From contig JAFWYK010000010.1 of NCBI GenBank assembly GCA_017517685.1, positions 237 through 64,236 on the forward strand: a stretch of DNA of 64,000 nt, read 5' to 3'. The notes under the pieces were generated by a model. It worked only from the letters and a program-made list of their open reading frames with translations, had not been told where the DNA came from and did no database searches. This document shows positions 35,240 through 39,423 of this stretch, piece after piece (position 1 is the stretch's first letter; each line of letters opens with the position of its first letter). A program made the position numbers and the translations under genes. The stretch is from Clostridia bacterium. Lineage in GTDB: Bacteria; Bacillota; Clostridia; TANB77; CAG-508.

Positions 35240-35494
35240 ATGGGTGTAGAAAATGATAAAGTTAAAGAGTTACTTTTAATAAAAAGTAATTTACAAACTG
35301 CATTAGAAACAAATAATAGAGAAGATATAATAAGATATTTTAATGAATTTAAAGCTTTATATGAGGAAGTAACATCAAAGAAATTTGAAGATGATATACC
35401 AGAAGAAAAGTTAAAACAAATTCAAAGTGTTATTAATGGAACTGTTGCTGAAACAGTTGTTAAGGAAGATACCGGAGAAGAAATTTTAATGTAG
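35240..35494 (+). CDS. small acidic helical protein, unknown (orphan operon gene 1)
   Basis: SD AGAGG. 84 aa with no motif. 13-nt spacer to the next ORF. Confidence 0.55.
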   Translation: MGVENDKVKELLLIKSNLQTALETNNREDIIRYFNEFKALYEEVTSKKFEDDIPEEKLKQIQSVINGTVAETVVKEDTGEEILM

Positions 35495-35507
35495 TTGGAG
35501 TACTCAT

Positions 35508-38500
35508 ATGGAGAAAAAAGATATAGATTTATACTTAAGTAAAGTTAATAGTGAGGCAACAAAGGAAGAGAAACTTGAAGCAACAAAAGAATTAGTAAAA
35601 CAGATAGATGAAAGTGTTGTACATTTAGATAAAACAACACGAAGAATGGCATCGTATAAAATAGATCAAGACTTAATAGATTATTTGGTTTCTTCTTCAG
35701 CAATTAGTATTGCGCATGAAATAGGAATGACAGAAATCCAAGAATTATCAAGAATTGTTGGATTTATTGTGGAAAGTTCTAACGCTTCTAATAAAGAAGA
35801 TTCTTTAAAGAAATTAAGAGAAGAAGTTGAAGCAGCTTTACAAAATCATGAGTTTTTGGGAGAATCACCTACAAAGGAACAATTAGATATATATGATGGA
35901 ATATTAACTAGATATTTATATGAGGCGATAGATAGAGGAATACCGGTTAATAATATTGCAAAAGATGCAGCTACGTATTTATTTTCAAATATGCCTGATG
36001 GGTTGAATCATAGGCATACATTAGCTTATCAATTACAAATATTGAGAGCAATGTCTGACAGAGAAGATATTGGTGATTTAATTCCTAAACTTACTAAAGA
36101 AGAATATAGAGAAGCTTTAAGTAATCCACATGTTTTAAAAAGTGGAAGATTAGCTGTTTTAGGTCCATATGATTTAATATTAAATGAATATATGTATCAT
36201 TATGGACAAACAGGTGAAATTAGCATAGAAGAAAAAAGTAAATTATTCGATACATTAGTTTCTAATGTAAGACCAGGAGAATTAATAAACTCTAATGCAT
36301 ATACAAAATATTTTTCAGTAAGCGGTTTTGAAGATGATCAAAAAGTTACTTATGGTAGTAATACTGCAATTATGACAGATGTATTAGCAAGAATATATGA
36401 GAACAACGGTAGAGATACTCGTATAACAGATTTTGAAGCAATGTTAATAGATGATTTTTATTTACCACATGACTATAATTTAGAACAAGAAGAACCAGAA
36501 GAATATGCAAGAATGAAAGAGTTAATACCAGATTATTCTCCAGTACTACATATCGAAAGTGAACTTGAAAGACATTTGAATCAGCTATTTATATATTCGG
36601 CTTCTTCACCTGAAAAATTAGCTAGATATATGATTAGATTACAAAATTTGTTTGCTTCTAGAAATAGACCGAAAGAAGAAAAATTAGGAAAAATATATGA
36701 TGATGTAATATCTATAAAAATTGTAGATGCATTAAAAGCAAATCTTACAAAAGATGCACTAAAAGAAGTTGATCCAAACGCTCCGAAAGTAGATTGGGAC
36801 GAGATTTCAAAAATTTTAGGTATCGAAGAAACTGAAGAAGAACGTCAAAGACGACTTGAAACAGAGAAATCTCTTGAAGAGATAAAAAAAGATCGTGATC
36901 CTAATTTAAGTTATACAGGTTTAAGAAGAATTGATTATGCAGATATTGCTATAGAATTGATGTTAGAAGCTGACTTTGAAGAGGGTGTTAAGGTATTTGC
37001 TAATCCAGAAACAATAGCTAGATTTTCTGAGGCTGGTAGAAATATATTTGATTCTAAAGCTGCTAGAAAAATGGTTGAATTATATGTAGAAGACCCTTCA
37101 AGGTATGATAAAAATCCGCTTGCTGAGTCAATAATTGAAAGATATGTTAGCACAGTTGTTAGTAAACCTGATTTTAATGTGTTTAAAGAACAAGGTATTG
37201 CTGAATTAATGCAACTTGGTAATTTAGATAATAAATGTTATTTTGCAAAACGATTAATACCAAGAATAAAAGAAATTTTTGCAAAAAATCCTGCGTATTC
37301 AATGACCATAGATGAAAGTATTCAAGAGACATATGATTTTATAAAAAGTGTTGGCGATAATTCAATTAGTCAAGATATGGAAGCGGAATTTGATACATTT
37401 TTAAAAAATTTAACAAGAATAAGAATGGTATCACTAAATTTTGCATTACCAGAAGATGTAGTAGATTTTTTGATGAGCCAATCAATGAGACCAGAATCTC
37501 TTATTAATTTTAATAAGGAAAAATATGGTAAAGTTGCTGAGAGGGCTATTGAAGATTTAGGAAAAATAGATCATTTAAGACGTAATGGCGGAAAACCACT
37601 TAGTTCATTATATATAGTTAGAGATTATCTAGAACATGAAAAAACAATGGGATTACATGCAGGAGATACTATAACAATTAAAAGAGAAAGAATGGATCAA
37701 TTAGCAAATGGTAATCCAGATGGAATTAATACAATTTTCCATGAAAATACGCATATGAATCAAGGTGTAAGATTAAAAGGTACTATCTCTAGTTATAGAG
37801 AATATGTAATGTTAAAAGAAGATATTATTAGAAATTATGATAAATATGATGATTATTATGACACAAATTATATTATGATTTTTAAAGAAATAGAAGCCAG
37901 AGAAGTGGCTGCAGGAATGACAGCTAAGTATTTAGCTAAAATTGCTCCTAAAACTCAAGAAGTTGCAATAGCAGAAGCTGCAAAAGCTGATGTAATAGAT
38001 ATGATTTCCGAAAGATTTAAAAGAGAACAAGAAAGATATGAACATGAAAGCGAGTCTGAATCGAAATTATATATAGAAGGTTTGGATAAAAAAGATAAAG
38101 ATGGTAGCACAAGAAGTGTTAATGCTATATTTTCAGATAGATTTAGAAATAGTTATGCTATGAATGATTTTATAAAAAGAGTACCGTTTGCAGCTATAGA
38201 ATATGATAGCAATGGAAAAATAAGACCATTTTCAGAGCAAATGGCATTTCTAAACAGGATTAGTGACACAACATTTTCTGTAAAACAATATGGTTTTATT
38301 AAAAATATTTTAAAATTTAGTCAAAATGATAAAACAGAAAATAGTAAACAATCAGTTTTAGCATTAAAAGACTTAATAGAAGCTTCAAATGGTAAGAATT
38401 TACAAGAGCAATTTGTAGGGGTTATAGTATCAGATAATTATTTACCAGTTTTTGCTAGTTTTGTTAAAGATGCTTTTGCAGATTTAAAGGCAAAACCATC

Positions 38501-38927
38501 AGTAACTGAAGATAGAATAGATACTTATACTGCTGTTAAAAGAATTGCTAGCTTAGTAAGAGATAATCCTGATGCTGAATGGACAAAAGCATTTAATGAA
38601 AAAAATGCAAAAGGTAATAGTATTTTAGATATGATAGATTTATACGAAAAAGGTATAAAACTAGCTCATCCAGGAATGGATAAAGCGGTAGTAGCTTTAT
38701 CAGAAGCTCGTAGAAAACAAGCTGAAGAACGCCAAGCAAGAATAGATATGCTAAAACATTCAAATAAACCGAAAGGATTACTGGGAATATTTGGTAAAAA
38801 GAGAGTTGGATATAAAGAAATGGCTGGAATAACAGCCGATGTTGAAGGAAAACATGCAGTGCAAAATTATGAATCTGTTCAACAACATCAAATAGATTTG
38901 GCAGAACAAGATATTCAAGAACAATAA
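35508..38927 (+). CDS. 1139-aa soluble protein with a single HExxH zincin motif, otherwise unknown
   Basis: SD GGAG. HENTHMNQ at 37740-37763 (residues 745-752), with FKEIEAREVA downstream. No obvious TM segment or signal peptide. Confidence 0.7.
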   Translation: MEKKDIDLYLSKVNSEATKEEKLEATKELVKQIDESVVHLDKTTRRMASYKIDQDLIDYLVSSSAISIAHEIGMTEIQELSRIVGFIVESSNASNKEDSLKKLREEVEAALQNHEFLGESPTKEQLDIYDGILTRYLYEAIDRGIPVNNIAKDAATYLFSNMPDGLNHRHTLAYQLQILRAMSDREDIGDLIPKLTKEEYREALSNPHVLKSGRLAVLGPYDLILNEYMYHYGQTGEISIEEKSKLFDTLVSNVRPGELINSNAYTKYFSVSGFEDDQKVTYGSNTAIMTDVLARIYENNGRDTRITDFEAMLIDDFYLPHDYNLEQEEPEEYARMKELIPDYSPVLHIESELERHLNQLFIYSASSPEKLARYMIRLQNLFASRNRPKEEKLGKIYDDVISIKIVDALKANLTKDALKEVDPNAPKVDWDEISKILGIEETEEERQRRLETEKSLEEIKKDRDPNLSYTGLRRIDYADIAIELMLEADFEEGVKVFANPETIARFSEAGRNIFDSKAARKMVELYVEDPSRYDKNPLAESIIERYVSTVVSKPDFNVFKEQGIAELMQLGNLDNKCYFAKRLIPRIKEIFAKNPAYSMTIDESIQETYDFIKSVGDNSISQDMEAEFDTFLKNLTRIRMVSLNFALPEDVVDFLMSQSMRPESLINFNKEKYGKVAERAIEDLGKIDHLRRNGGKPLSSLYIVRDYLEHEKTMGLHAGDTITIKRERMDQLANGNPDGINTIFHENTHMNQGVRLKGTISSYREYVMLKEDIIRNYDKYDDYYDTNYIMIFKEIEAREVAAGMTAKYLAKIAPKTQEVAIAEAAKADVIDMISERFKREQERYEHESESESKLYIEGLDKKDKDGSTRSVNAIFSDRFRNSYAMNDFIKRVPFAAIEYDSNGKIRPFSEQMAFLNRISDTTFSVKQYGFIKNILKFSQNDKTENSKQSVLALKDLIEASNGKNLQEQFVGVIVSDNYLPVFASFVKDAFADLKAKPSVTEDRIDTYTAVKRIASLVRDNPDAEWTKAFNEKNAKGNSILDMIDLYEKGIKLAHPGMDKAVVALSEARRKQAEERQARIDMLKHSNKPKGLLGIFGKKRVGYKEMAGITADVEGKHAVQNYESVQQHQIDLAEQDIQEQ

Positions 38928-38943
38928 AATTTAAGAGGTAGAT

Positions 38944-39423
38944 ATGGTAAAATTTTCTGAAGAAGAAATGAAATGCGCTTATAAAGAAGTGTATTATATA
39001 ATTGAATTTTTAGATGAAGATATTAAAGAAATGATTCCAAATGAGAAGATAGAGTTTTATAAATCTCATATGGATAATACTCATAGCTTTAGATATGATT
39101 TAGATAAAGATTTAAATGATCAAAATATTTTATATCCGACTAAATGTATTCTTTCAAATTTGTTTAAAACATATATTGCAACAGAAGAAGATAAAGCTGA
39201 AATAGAAAAAGAGGAACAAAAACAGTTAAATGAAATTGAAAATGAAAAACATTTAAAATATAATCCGGATAATATATTTAAAACTAAAGAGTCTAAACCA
39301 AAACTTGCAATTTCTTCTATAGAAATTGAAGACATATCTACAGATATGATTGTTTCTGAAAAAGAAGAACCAATTTTTAGAAATATTATAAATAAAATCT
39401 TAAAGTTTTTAAAAATAAAATAA
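38944..39423 (+). CDS. 159-aa acidic protein, unknown (orphan operon gene 3)
   Basis: SD GAGG and a 16-nt spacer from the previous ORF. The N-terminal pattern IP..KIEFYK......F.YD..K.L..Q resembles uncharacterised small clostridial proteins I cannot name. Confidence 0.55.
   Translation: MVKFSEEEMKCAYKEVYYIIEFLDEDIKEMIPNEKIEFYKSHMDNTHSFRYDLDKDLNDQNILYPTKCILSNLFKTYIATEEDKAEIEKEEQKQLNEIENEKHLKYNPDNIFKTKESKPKLAISSIEIEDISTDMIVSEKEEPIFRNIINKILKFLKIK

Follow-up and report, generated by a model that had tools for sequence, protein, structure and literature searches.

Within a 64,000-nucleotide stretch of the genome of a Clostridia bacterium (contig JAFWYK010000010.1), referred to here as the window, an insulated and autonomous operon of three co-directional genes encodes a 1139-residue protein with a predicted zincin metallopeptidase core, together with two small proteins encoded by the open reading frames (ORFs) on either side of it, ORF1 and ORF3. 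The operon is a zincin protease, as predicted from sequence and modelled structure, in a new multi-component setting, and it cannot be filed under any described system: Pfam, NCBIfam, PADLOC, PHROGs, PDB and Foldseek searches gave nothing to which any of the three genes could be assigned, as an earlier reading of the DNA made from the sequence alone had already held. The interpretation favoured here, tentatively and as not quite an even bet, is that the three genes form an intracellular zincin protease module in which ORF3 acts as a tethering adaptor and ORF1 as a family-specific partner, with a likely role in biological conflict. The operon and its boundaries comprise the following features.

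35123-35159, + strand: intrinsic terminator of the upstream hydrogenase gene (hairpin at 35123-35149 plus a T-run; 12-bp stem with 4 GC pairs)
35185-35207, + strand: promoter-like region, with TTTGAAA (35185-35191) and AATGATACAAT (35197-35207; extended -10-like, TGnTACAAT)
35240-35494, + strand: ORF1, 84 residues, Shine-Dalgarno AAGAGG, isoelectric point 4.5
35508-38927, + strand: large protein ORF, 1139 residues, 131 kDa, Shine-Dalgarno GGAG, isoelectric point 5.2
38944-39423, + strand: ORF3, 159 residues, Shine-Dalgarno AAGAGG, isoelectric point 4.9
39425-39454, both strands: palindromic hairpin with a 13-bp stem, common to the operon and the convergent ylbJ-like gene

The coordinates of the three ORFs and the spacers between them (13 nt from ORF1 to the large protein, 16 nt from the large protein to ORF3) are exactly those of the sequence-only reading, and the terminators that it placed on either side are borne out by a scan that puts hairpins at 35123-35149 and 39425-39454. 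The locus thus has a terminator at each end and its own promoter-like region. At the 5' side the terminator of the hydrogenase gene insulates the operon, and at the 3' end the hairpin is flanked by an A-run and, opposite it, by a T-run, which allows termination in both directions. Terminator-like sites number four in 6 kb, versus 1.1 expected from shuffled sequence. No Rfam family matches anywhere in the window, and no direct or inverted repeats flank the operon beyond AT-rich chance matches. Signal peptides and transmembrane segments are absent from all three proteins, none of which has a 19-residue window of transmembrane hydrophobicity (peak Kyte-Doolittle value of 1.27 in such windows, versus 2.96 for the ylbJ-like neighbour), which agrees with what had been claimed for the large protein.

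The large protein and its predicted zincin core

Nothing above chance matches the large protein in Pfam, NCBIfam, PADLOC, PHROGs or the sequences of the PDB. A word-indexed search of 5.8 billion proteins returned nine clusters (90% identity) that match it over the full length at 34-99% identity, an exhaustive profile search with the large protein returned 227 cluster representatives at E<=0.001, and the only annotation in any cluster of the large-protein, ORF1 or ORF3 families is 'hypothetical protein'. Three alignments underlie the statements on conservation, namely A1, of the nine family members, A4, of 77 superfamily sequences, and A6, a 37-sequence alignment of the core; domains were mapped by placing 157 relatives on the A1 profile. 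The mapping separates an N-terminal module, confined to a close family of ~1100-residue proteins, from residues ~500-1065, which recur in many proteins of 350-1800 residues with other N-termini. The AlphaFold2 model of the large protein has a predicted local distance difference test score (pLDDT) of 92.2 and a predicted template-modelling score (pTM) of 0.86, and DSSP assigns almost all of it to helix, as had been anticipated from the sequence; residues 670-812 are its sole sheet-bearing region.

35508-36767, + strand: N-terminal module, residues 1-420
37515-37943, + strand: zincin core, residues 670-812, delimited by DSSP of the AlphaFold2 model
37740-37754, + strand: HENTH, with H745 and H749 as predicted zinc ligands and E746 as predicted catalytic base
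37887-37889, + strand: E794, predicted third zinc ligand, in KEIEAR/FKEIEAREVA (ExxAR motif), 45 residues past H749
38169-38663, + strand: C-terminal helical domain, residues 888-1052, with extra tandem copies in some relatives (four extra copies in P0012)
38763-38924, + strand: C-terminal tail, residues 1086-1139, pLDDT 41-74, with KGLLGIFGKK and then a conserved helix, GYKxxAxxxADVEGKxxVxxYE

In the model, the core is built of an N-helix (670-692), three strands (701-705, 715-718 and 721-725), the HExxH helix (738-755), two insert helices within 763-786, and a glutamate helix (792-812) that has E794 at its start. The MPTase core has been described as a three-stranded sheet with an N-terminal helix, a HEXXH helix and a helix that bears the Glu, these latter two being separated by variable inserts (PMC5512222), and the predicted core topology of the large protein matches this description. 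The single zincin signature, HENTHMNQ at 37740-37763 (H745-Q752), and the candidate third-ligand glutamate in FKEIEAREVA had both been picked out by the sequence-only reading, and the position and conservation of both are confirmed: A1 and A6 show no variation at H745, E746, H749 or E794, conservation of the four in A4 is at least 90%, and HExxH occurs in almost every relative whose sequence spans this part. Across the 77 sequences of A4, in which identity falls to 15%, the nearly invariant positions are G715, H745, E746, H749, Y766, K770, N787, Y788, E794, A797 and E898. The signature generalizes to a superfamily motif of T-[ILV]-[FY]-H-E-x-x-H-x-x-Q. When the 37 core sequences were scanned singly against Pfam, the recurrent weak matches were exclusively to zincin families, among them SprT-like (11 of the 37, best E=4.4e-5) and DUF6782 (11 of the 37, best E=2.9e-4). 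The best PDB sequence match for the core profile, a botulinum neurotoxin (BoNT)-like PG1 light chain aligned around TLFHELVH, was not significant (E=0.82). Sequence and model together make the large protein a predicted gluzincin/MPTase-type zincin outside every curated family, and it is probably an active intracellular zinc peptidase. The C-terminal tail, whose profile matches the close family alone, is a candidate docking region for a partner.

Several known systems invite comparison. The MPTase superfamily (Pfam clan Peptidase_MA) likewise places a HExxH helix after a three-stranded sheet and a glutamate of a later helix as presumed third ligand, and the nearest profiles to the large-protein superfamily, all matched by relatives below threshold, are SprT-like (PF10263), DUF6782 (PF20573) and MPTase-PolyVal (PF18818); the window core differs in being buried within a 1139-residue, all-helical protein with new N- and C-terminal modules and two dedicated small partners. 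In SprT, Spartan and Wss1 the third ligand is a histidine, not a glutamate. The gluzincin toxin light chains, botulinum-like (M27) and anthrax lethal factor (M34), share the combination of HExxH with glutamate; in lethal factor and BoNT the glutamate ligand lies tens of residues downstream of HExxH, and in the window protein 45 residues separate H749 from E794. The window protein differs from these toxins in lacking translocation and receptor domains and an export signal, and the full-length fold search matched it to none of them. A literature search found no paper mentioning DUF6782, and no title on zincins, SprT-like proteins or polymorphic toxins that concerned such an operon.

A link to DUF4157-type zincins of polymorphic toxins and contractile-injection cargo, which the HExxHxxQ signature had suggested, is not supported. 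DUF4157 is an N-terminal marker on toxins that is specific to loci of extracellular contractile injection systems (eCIS; PMC8213781). The window protein resembles the DUF4157/PVC-metallopeptidases of eCIS in its HExxH zincin signature, in the HExxHxxQ of its wider superfamily and in its association with variable proteins, and differs from them in that its host is a gut Clostridium with no eCIS genes nearby. PF13699 gave no match for the large protein at E<=1 and was not among the 25 most often matched of the 41 families that the 37 relatives matched at E<=10. Within ~10 kb there are no eCIS genes (the neighbours include hydrogenase, ylbJ-like, mfd and SpoU methylase genes), no trio locus contains sheath, tube or baseplate families, and three close relatives have R in place of Q752, although HExxHxxQ holds across the wider superfamily.

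Co-occurrence of the three gene families

Co-occurrence of the three genes in other genomes had been set beforehand as the test of their association, and the trio was found with every close homologue, each large protein being preceded by a protein of 78-87 residues and followed by one of 151-169 residues in seven different contexts. More widely, the three families occur together in at least 10 lineages, with three gene orders and with chromosomal surroundings that are unrelated to one another. Remote relatives of the zincin, with 22-30% identity and the C-terminal module alone in common, still adjoin members of both partner families. The contexts of the close homologues are listed first, followed by the gene orders among the remote relatives.

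Context: the same hydrogenase/mfd site as in the window, in a species with a 62% identical large protein
Context: directly after a tyrosine recombinase gene, near a DUF3846/RadC gene and an extracytoplasmic function (ECF) sigma factor gene (L001, L002)
Context: after the gene for a 2510-residue HD-helicase protein (L007)
Context: after uvrB
Context: after cohesin, sortase and dockerin genes
Context: between acpP and rnc (L010)
Context: ahead of a further, partial module and a gene for a HipA-like kinase (L012)
Order: ORF3-like, ORF1-like, zincin (L068)
Order: ORF3-like, zincin, ORF1-like (L072 and L074)
Order: ORF1-like, zincin, ORF3-like (L073)

At L069 only the zincin and an ORF3-like gene are present, and short or diverged zincin relatives stand alone at L070, L075, L076 and, as three tandem paralogues, L077. 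Because all three families are retained through this shuffling of gene order, there is strong evidence that they are functionally coupled. ORF1, an acidic and helical protein, is the more specialized of the two small partners, in that its family (38 clusters) is found only next to the zincin, including the remote relatives at L068, L072, L073 and L074. An assignment of ORF1 to Phage_TAC_19 was discarded; it came from a single sub-threshold match in one relative and was not reproduced in others.

The trio also appears to carry its own regulatory sequence. A motif pair, TTTGAAATNG followed by AATGATAYWAT, lies upstream of the ORF1 gene in seven of eight trio loci (the window, L001, L005, L007, L008, L010 and L012) despite their differing contexts, with a spacing that is generally 22-23 nt and is 10-11 nt in the window and L005. 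The pair, also written TTTGAAAT/TGATACAAT, is a putative promoter; since its spacing is unfit for a single sigma-70-type promoter, the first motif may instead be an operator.

Some of the trio loci have features of their own. The acpP-rnc interval holds the trio at L010:2463-6540 and, at L077:2752-9334, three zincin-superfamily paralogues of 784, 663 and 729 residues without ORF1 or ORF3, and is either a site of repeated insertion or a location of long standing. At L012:4241-5975 the trio is followed by a 341-residue ORF consisting of two copies of the 888-1052 domain of the large protein, then by an overlapping 84-residue ORF in another frame with a GFLGLFGK motif, which does not match the trio-type tail profile, and then by a second ORF3-like gene; this second module may be a frameshifted gene. 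ORFs for HipA-like kinases (NRDRHDENFG) lie just downstream of two independent trios, at L008:11052-12023 (323 residues) and L012:6310-7410 (366 residues), and match HipA_C below threshold (E=0.0012) and PI3/PI4-kinase weakly as well. The 2510-residue protein encoded directly upstream of the trio at L007:1633-9165 combines HD, ResIII/DEAD and Helicase_C domains; farther upstream lies a gene for a C39 peptidase, and these surroundings may be a defence or conflict neighbourhood.

The ORF3 family and its upstream partners

The description of the operon as an orphan, made from the sequence alone, fails for ORF3, whose profile gathers 605 proteins (90%-identity clusters), nearly all of 145-170 residues. 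The family has no Pfam domain; among GTDB species representatives it occupies 48 loci, all in metagenome-assembled genomes of uncultured gut or rumen Clostridia, and no viral contig carries a member. Both small partners had been called acidic, helical and free of motifs, of which the first two stand and the last does not, the family-level ORF3 alignment having many near-invariant residues. The AlphaFold2 model of ORF3 consists of a helical N-domain (residues 1-112, 38944-39279; pLDDT >90), a disordered linker (residues 117-142) and a C-terminal helix (residues 143-157, 39370-39414) that is basic (net charge +4) and strongly amphipathic. This helix is kept in the most distant members and the linker is not. 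Foldseek found no structural relative of ORF3 in the PDB (best E=3.3), and a match to the RalGDS RA-domain (E=0.002 over 36 residues) was rejected as spurious since it contradicts the all-helical model. One family member, P0270 (253 residues), has a tandem-duplicated helical domain and a single C-terminal amphipathic helix; no fusions of the family to other domains were seen.

ORF3-like genes rarely stand without a partner. In a sample of the genes just upstream of each ORF3-like gene at 57 pooled loci, a co-directional ORF lies within -90 to +110 nt of 58 of the 60 ORF3-like genes (~97%), usually with an overlap of 8 or 11 nt (translational coupling). The upstream partners fall into 26 unrelated clusters, and ORF3-partner pairs also occur in tandem. 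One partner (at L058) is a member of the zincin superfamily, and others are different HExxH proteins (HLIHELGHAW, TYMHEITHAL). Of the partners at L027:5497-6876 and L014:6743-8011, one has mTERF repeats (Pfam E=4.6e-50) and the other weak DUF4116 repeats; mTERF repeats are rare in bacteria, and proteins with mTERF or DUF4116 repeats are eukaryote-like. A common C-terminal tail of ~45 residues, ..I[ST][PM]K.VV.NAI..GIT.EDV...NPEK.NEG.., is present in 44 of 58 partners, a count that is partly circular, the profile having been built from those tails, although the profile matches only 2 of ~670 other ORFs. The coding sequence for the end of the tail runs into the ribosome-binding site of the ORF3-like gene, and part of the conservation may therefore lie at the nucleotide level.

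Some partners have further features. A basic amphipathic N-terminus (MGLFDKFKNFFSKILK, MGFFNKLKHIFSKVFRK) is found among the partners at L048:5353-6993, L064:47-1690 and L025:5311-6987; these N-termini resemble the membrane-binding helices of PspA/Vipp1 or FtsY, and they echo the KGLLGIFGKK segment of the window large protein. In three loci (L050:5437-5739, L053 and L055) an ORF of ~100 residues starting with MRVSTEDQ, apparently an N-terminal piece of a serine recombinase, lies upstream of partners of 392-397 residues. Integrases near ORF3 loci were considered as evidence of mobility and set aside, being in part a conserved context of xer-like and penicillin-binding protein (PBP) genes.

A proposed mechanism and its alternatives

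In the protease module proposed here, the large protein would be the catalytic subunit, a compact, all-helical and cytoplasmic enzyme in whose core (~670-812) the zinc ligands would be two histidines of a single helix, H745 and H749, together with E794 of a later one, and E746 would serve as general base. ORF3 would be a generic partner that binds the C-terminal part of whichever protein is encoded just upstream, and its C-terminal amphipathic helix may anchor that partner at the cytoplasmic face of the membrane or on another machine. The suggestion of a tethering adaptor comes from the layout of ORF3, with its folded N-domain, flexible linker and basic amphipathic helix, and binding at the C-terminal end fits the second module of L012, which is reduced to the C-terminal domain plus a tail-like ORF and an ORF3-like gene. 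The tethering adaptor SspB similarly has a folded N-domain, a linker and a short C-terminal docking element, and the analogy with ORF3 (an N-domain of ~110 residues, a disordered linker of ~30 and a short conserved C-terminal element) is one of architecture only: ORF3 has no sequence or fold similarity to SspB, and its C-terminal helix is membrane-binding-like rather than a ClpX-binding peptide. ORF1 may be a chaperone or inhibitor specific to this protease family.

The biological role of the module would most likely be conflict-related, either in defence or toxin-like, rather than core housekeeping. This view is drawn from the patchy distribution of the trio, its varying insertion points (including acpP-rnc), the diversity of ORF3 partners and the tandem pairs, and from the toxin-like or mobile character of some neighbours, such as the integrase with DUF3846/RadC, the HipA-like kinases and the 2510-residue HD-helicase. 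Constant-adaptor, variable-payload architectures have repeatedly proved to be defence, toxin or delivery systems. A broader proposal, possible though doubtful, is that uncultured gut Clostridia have a modular system not described before, of which the ORF3 family is the marker and in which a constant adaptor is coupled to dozens of unrelated payloads, most of them with a common C-terminal tag, as a new route of effector tethering or delivery. Among the payloads would be zincins of several kinds, proteins with mTERF or DUF4116 repeats and many new folds, and the zincin trio with its ORF1 would be a specialized branch.

A number of results weigh against the protease module and its role in conflict. 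The window large protein matched no curated zincin model even at E<=10, and Foldseek searches of the full-length model against the PDB and BFVD returned generic alpha-solenoids alone, at template-modelling (TM) scores of <=0.18 that are uninformative. A docking tag common to the zincin tail (GYK..ADVEGK) and the tail of the other partners (ISMKAVVSNAITQGITTEDV) was sought with hmmsearch and hhalign, neither of which gave a significant match. No homologues were found in collections of phages (50,697 records), plasmids (72,556) or IMG/VR, and the PADLOC-type scan for which the sequence-only reading had called matched no defence-system model, PADLOC-DB v2 giving only a chance-level match for ORF1 (E=0.015) and nothing for the other two proteins. 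The remaining points fit a stable host gene equally well: the GC content of the operon (0.27-0.30) lies within the range of its flanks (0.27-0.33), in keeping with the host-like composition noted earlier; conservation in A1 is strong along all 1139 residues, indicating purifying selection over the whole length; the trio keeps the same site, from hydrogenase to ylbJ-like/mfd, in the species with a 62% identical protein; and in several species ORF3 pairs hold conserved positions beside yabP-yqfD-ybeY-era or xer-like/PBP genes.

Two other accounts of the operon merit consideration. In the first, which we judge unlikely, the proteins upstream of ORF3 are exported polymorphic effectors or toxins, with the variable bodies as payloads, ORF3 as an export adaptor or chaperone that reads a C-terminal signal, and ORF1 as an immunity protein or inhibitor. 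As in polymorphic toxin systems, a constant element is tightly paired with many unrelated domains, in cassettes that can be tandem: one partner family accompanies at least 26 unrelated bodies that have the ~45-residue tail in common, the bodies include eukaryote- or effector-like proteins (HExxH, mTERF-repeat and weak DUF4116-repeat proteins), and ORF1 co-varies with the zincin body only. Zincins are reportedly common toxin domains in the polymorphic-toxin study of Zhang and colleagues from 2012. The polarity, however, is reversed, since in classical polymorphic toxins it is the N-terminus that stays constant and the C-terminal toxin that varies, whereas here the C-terminal tail and the downstream gene, ORF3, are constant and the body varies. 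The bodies all lack signal peptides and transmembrane segments, there are no LXG, RHS, PT or DUF4157 domains, and no variable immunity gene follows ORF3. Known trafficking, toxin and immunity domains are likewise lacking, the flanks contain no secretion system, with no type VII, eCIS or other secretion genes within ~10 kb, and several of the pairs occupy conserved chromosomal positions.

The second account, also improbable, is that the operon is a lineage-specific housekeeping or developmental module inherited vertically, for instance a membrane-associated protease for envelope biogenesis or sporulation. All of the points just given as fitting a stable host gene (host-like GC, the retained hydrogenase to ylbJ-like/mfd position, the conserved positions of ORF3 pairs and the conservation of the entire large protein) count in its favour, as does the absence of any link to mobile-element databases. 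On the other side, the zincin family is very rare, with nine clusters versus 605 for ORF3, and it occupies a different locus in each lineage, sometimes splitting conserved pairs such as acpP-rnc; the extreme diversity of ORF3 partners is unlike a housekeeping pathway, and integrases and toxin-like kinases occur among the neighbours.

It is very unlikely that the large protein is of polyvalent type, carried by a conjugative element or prophage and delivered into a new host in which the MPTase domain would process the protein or attack host defences. The core does fit the MPTase description, one relative has a weak MPTase-PolyVal match (E=0.093), and the trio at L001/L002 sits directly after the tyrosine recombinase gene, near the DUF3846/RadC and ECF sigma factor genes. 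That lineage is, however, the only one with a neighbouring integrase, most contexts being plain chromosome without flanking repeats, and neither the phage, plasmid and IMG/VR collections nor PHROGs contain a match; ArdC-N, methylase, SNF2 and other polyvalent domains are also lacking. That HExxH is incidental or marks a pseudo-enzyme, with the large protein a purely structural helical scaffold, is scarcely credible: the full-length fold search did return only alpha-solenoid scaffolds (karyopherins, CAND1) and the window protein matches no curated zincin model, but those solenoid matches carry no information at such TM scores, and H745, E746, H749 and E794 are (nearly) invariant over 77 highly divergent sequences and sit on the expected secondary-structure elements.

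If the protease module is as proposed, the large protein would found a new family of zincin metallopeptidases, a 131-kDa all-helical enzyme without a solved or curated relative. The rule by which ORF3 pairs with its upstream gene, seen in a family of more than 600 clusters and with at least 26 unrelated partners, organizes a large block of 'hypothetical' genes in abundant uncultured gut Clostridia. Should the operon encode a lineage-specific housekeeping protease instead, the gain would be a modest one in annotation.

The convergent neighbour of the operon shows variation of its own. The ylbJ-like gene (39457-40455, - strand) is intact in the window, encoding 332 residues, and an 87-residue ORF at 39644-39907 is its antisense shadow. 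In related genomes the same gene is split into ORFs of 195 and 144 residues (L005:14000-14953 and L071:6777-7776), which suggests a pseudogene or an assembly frameshift.

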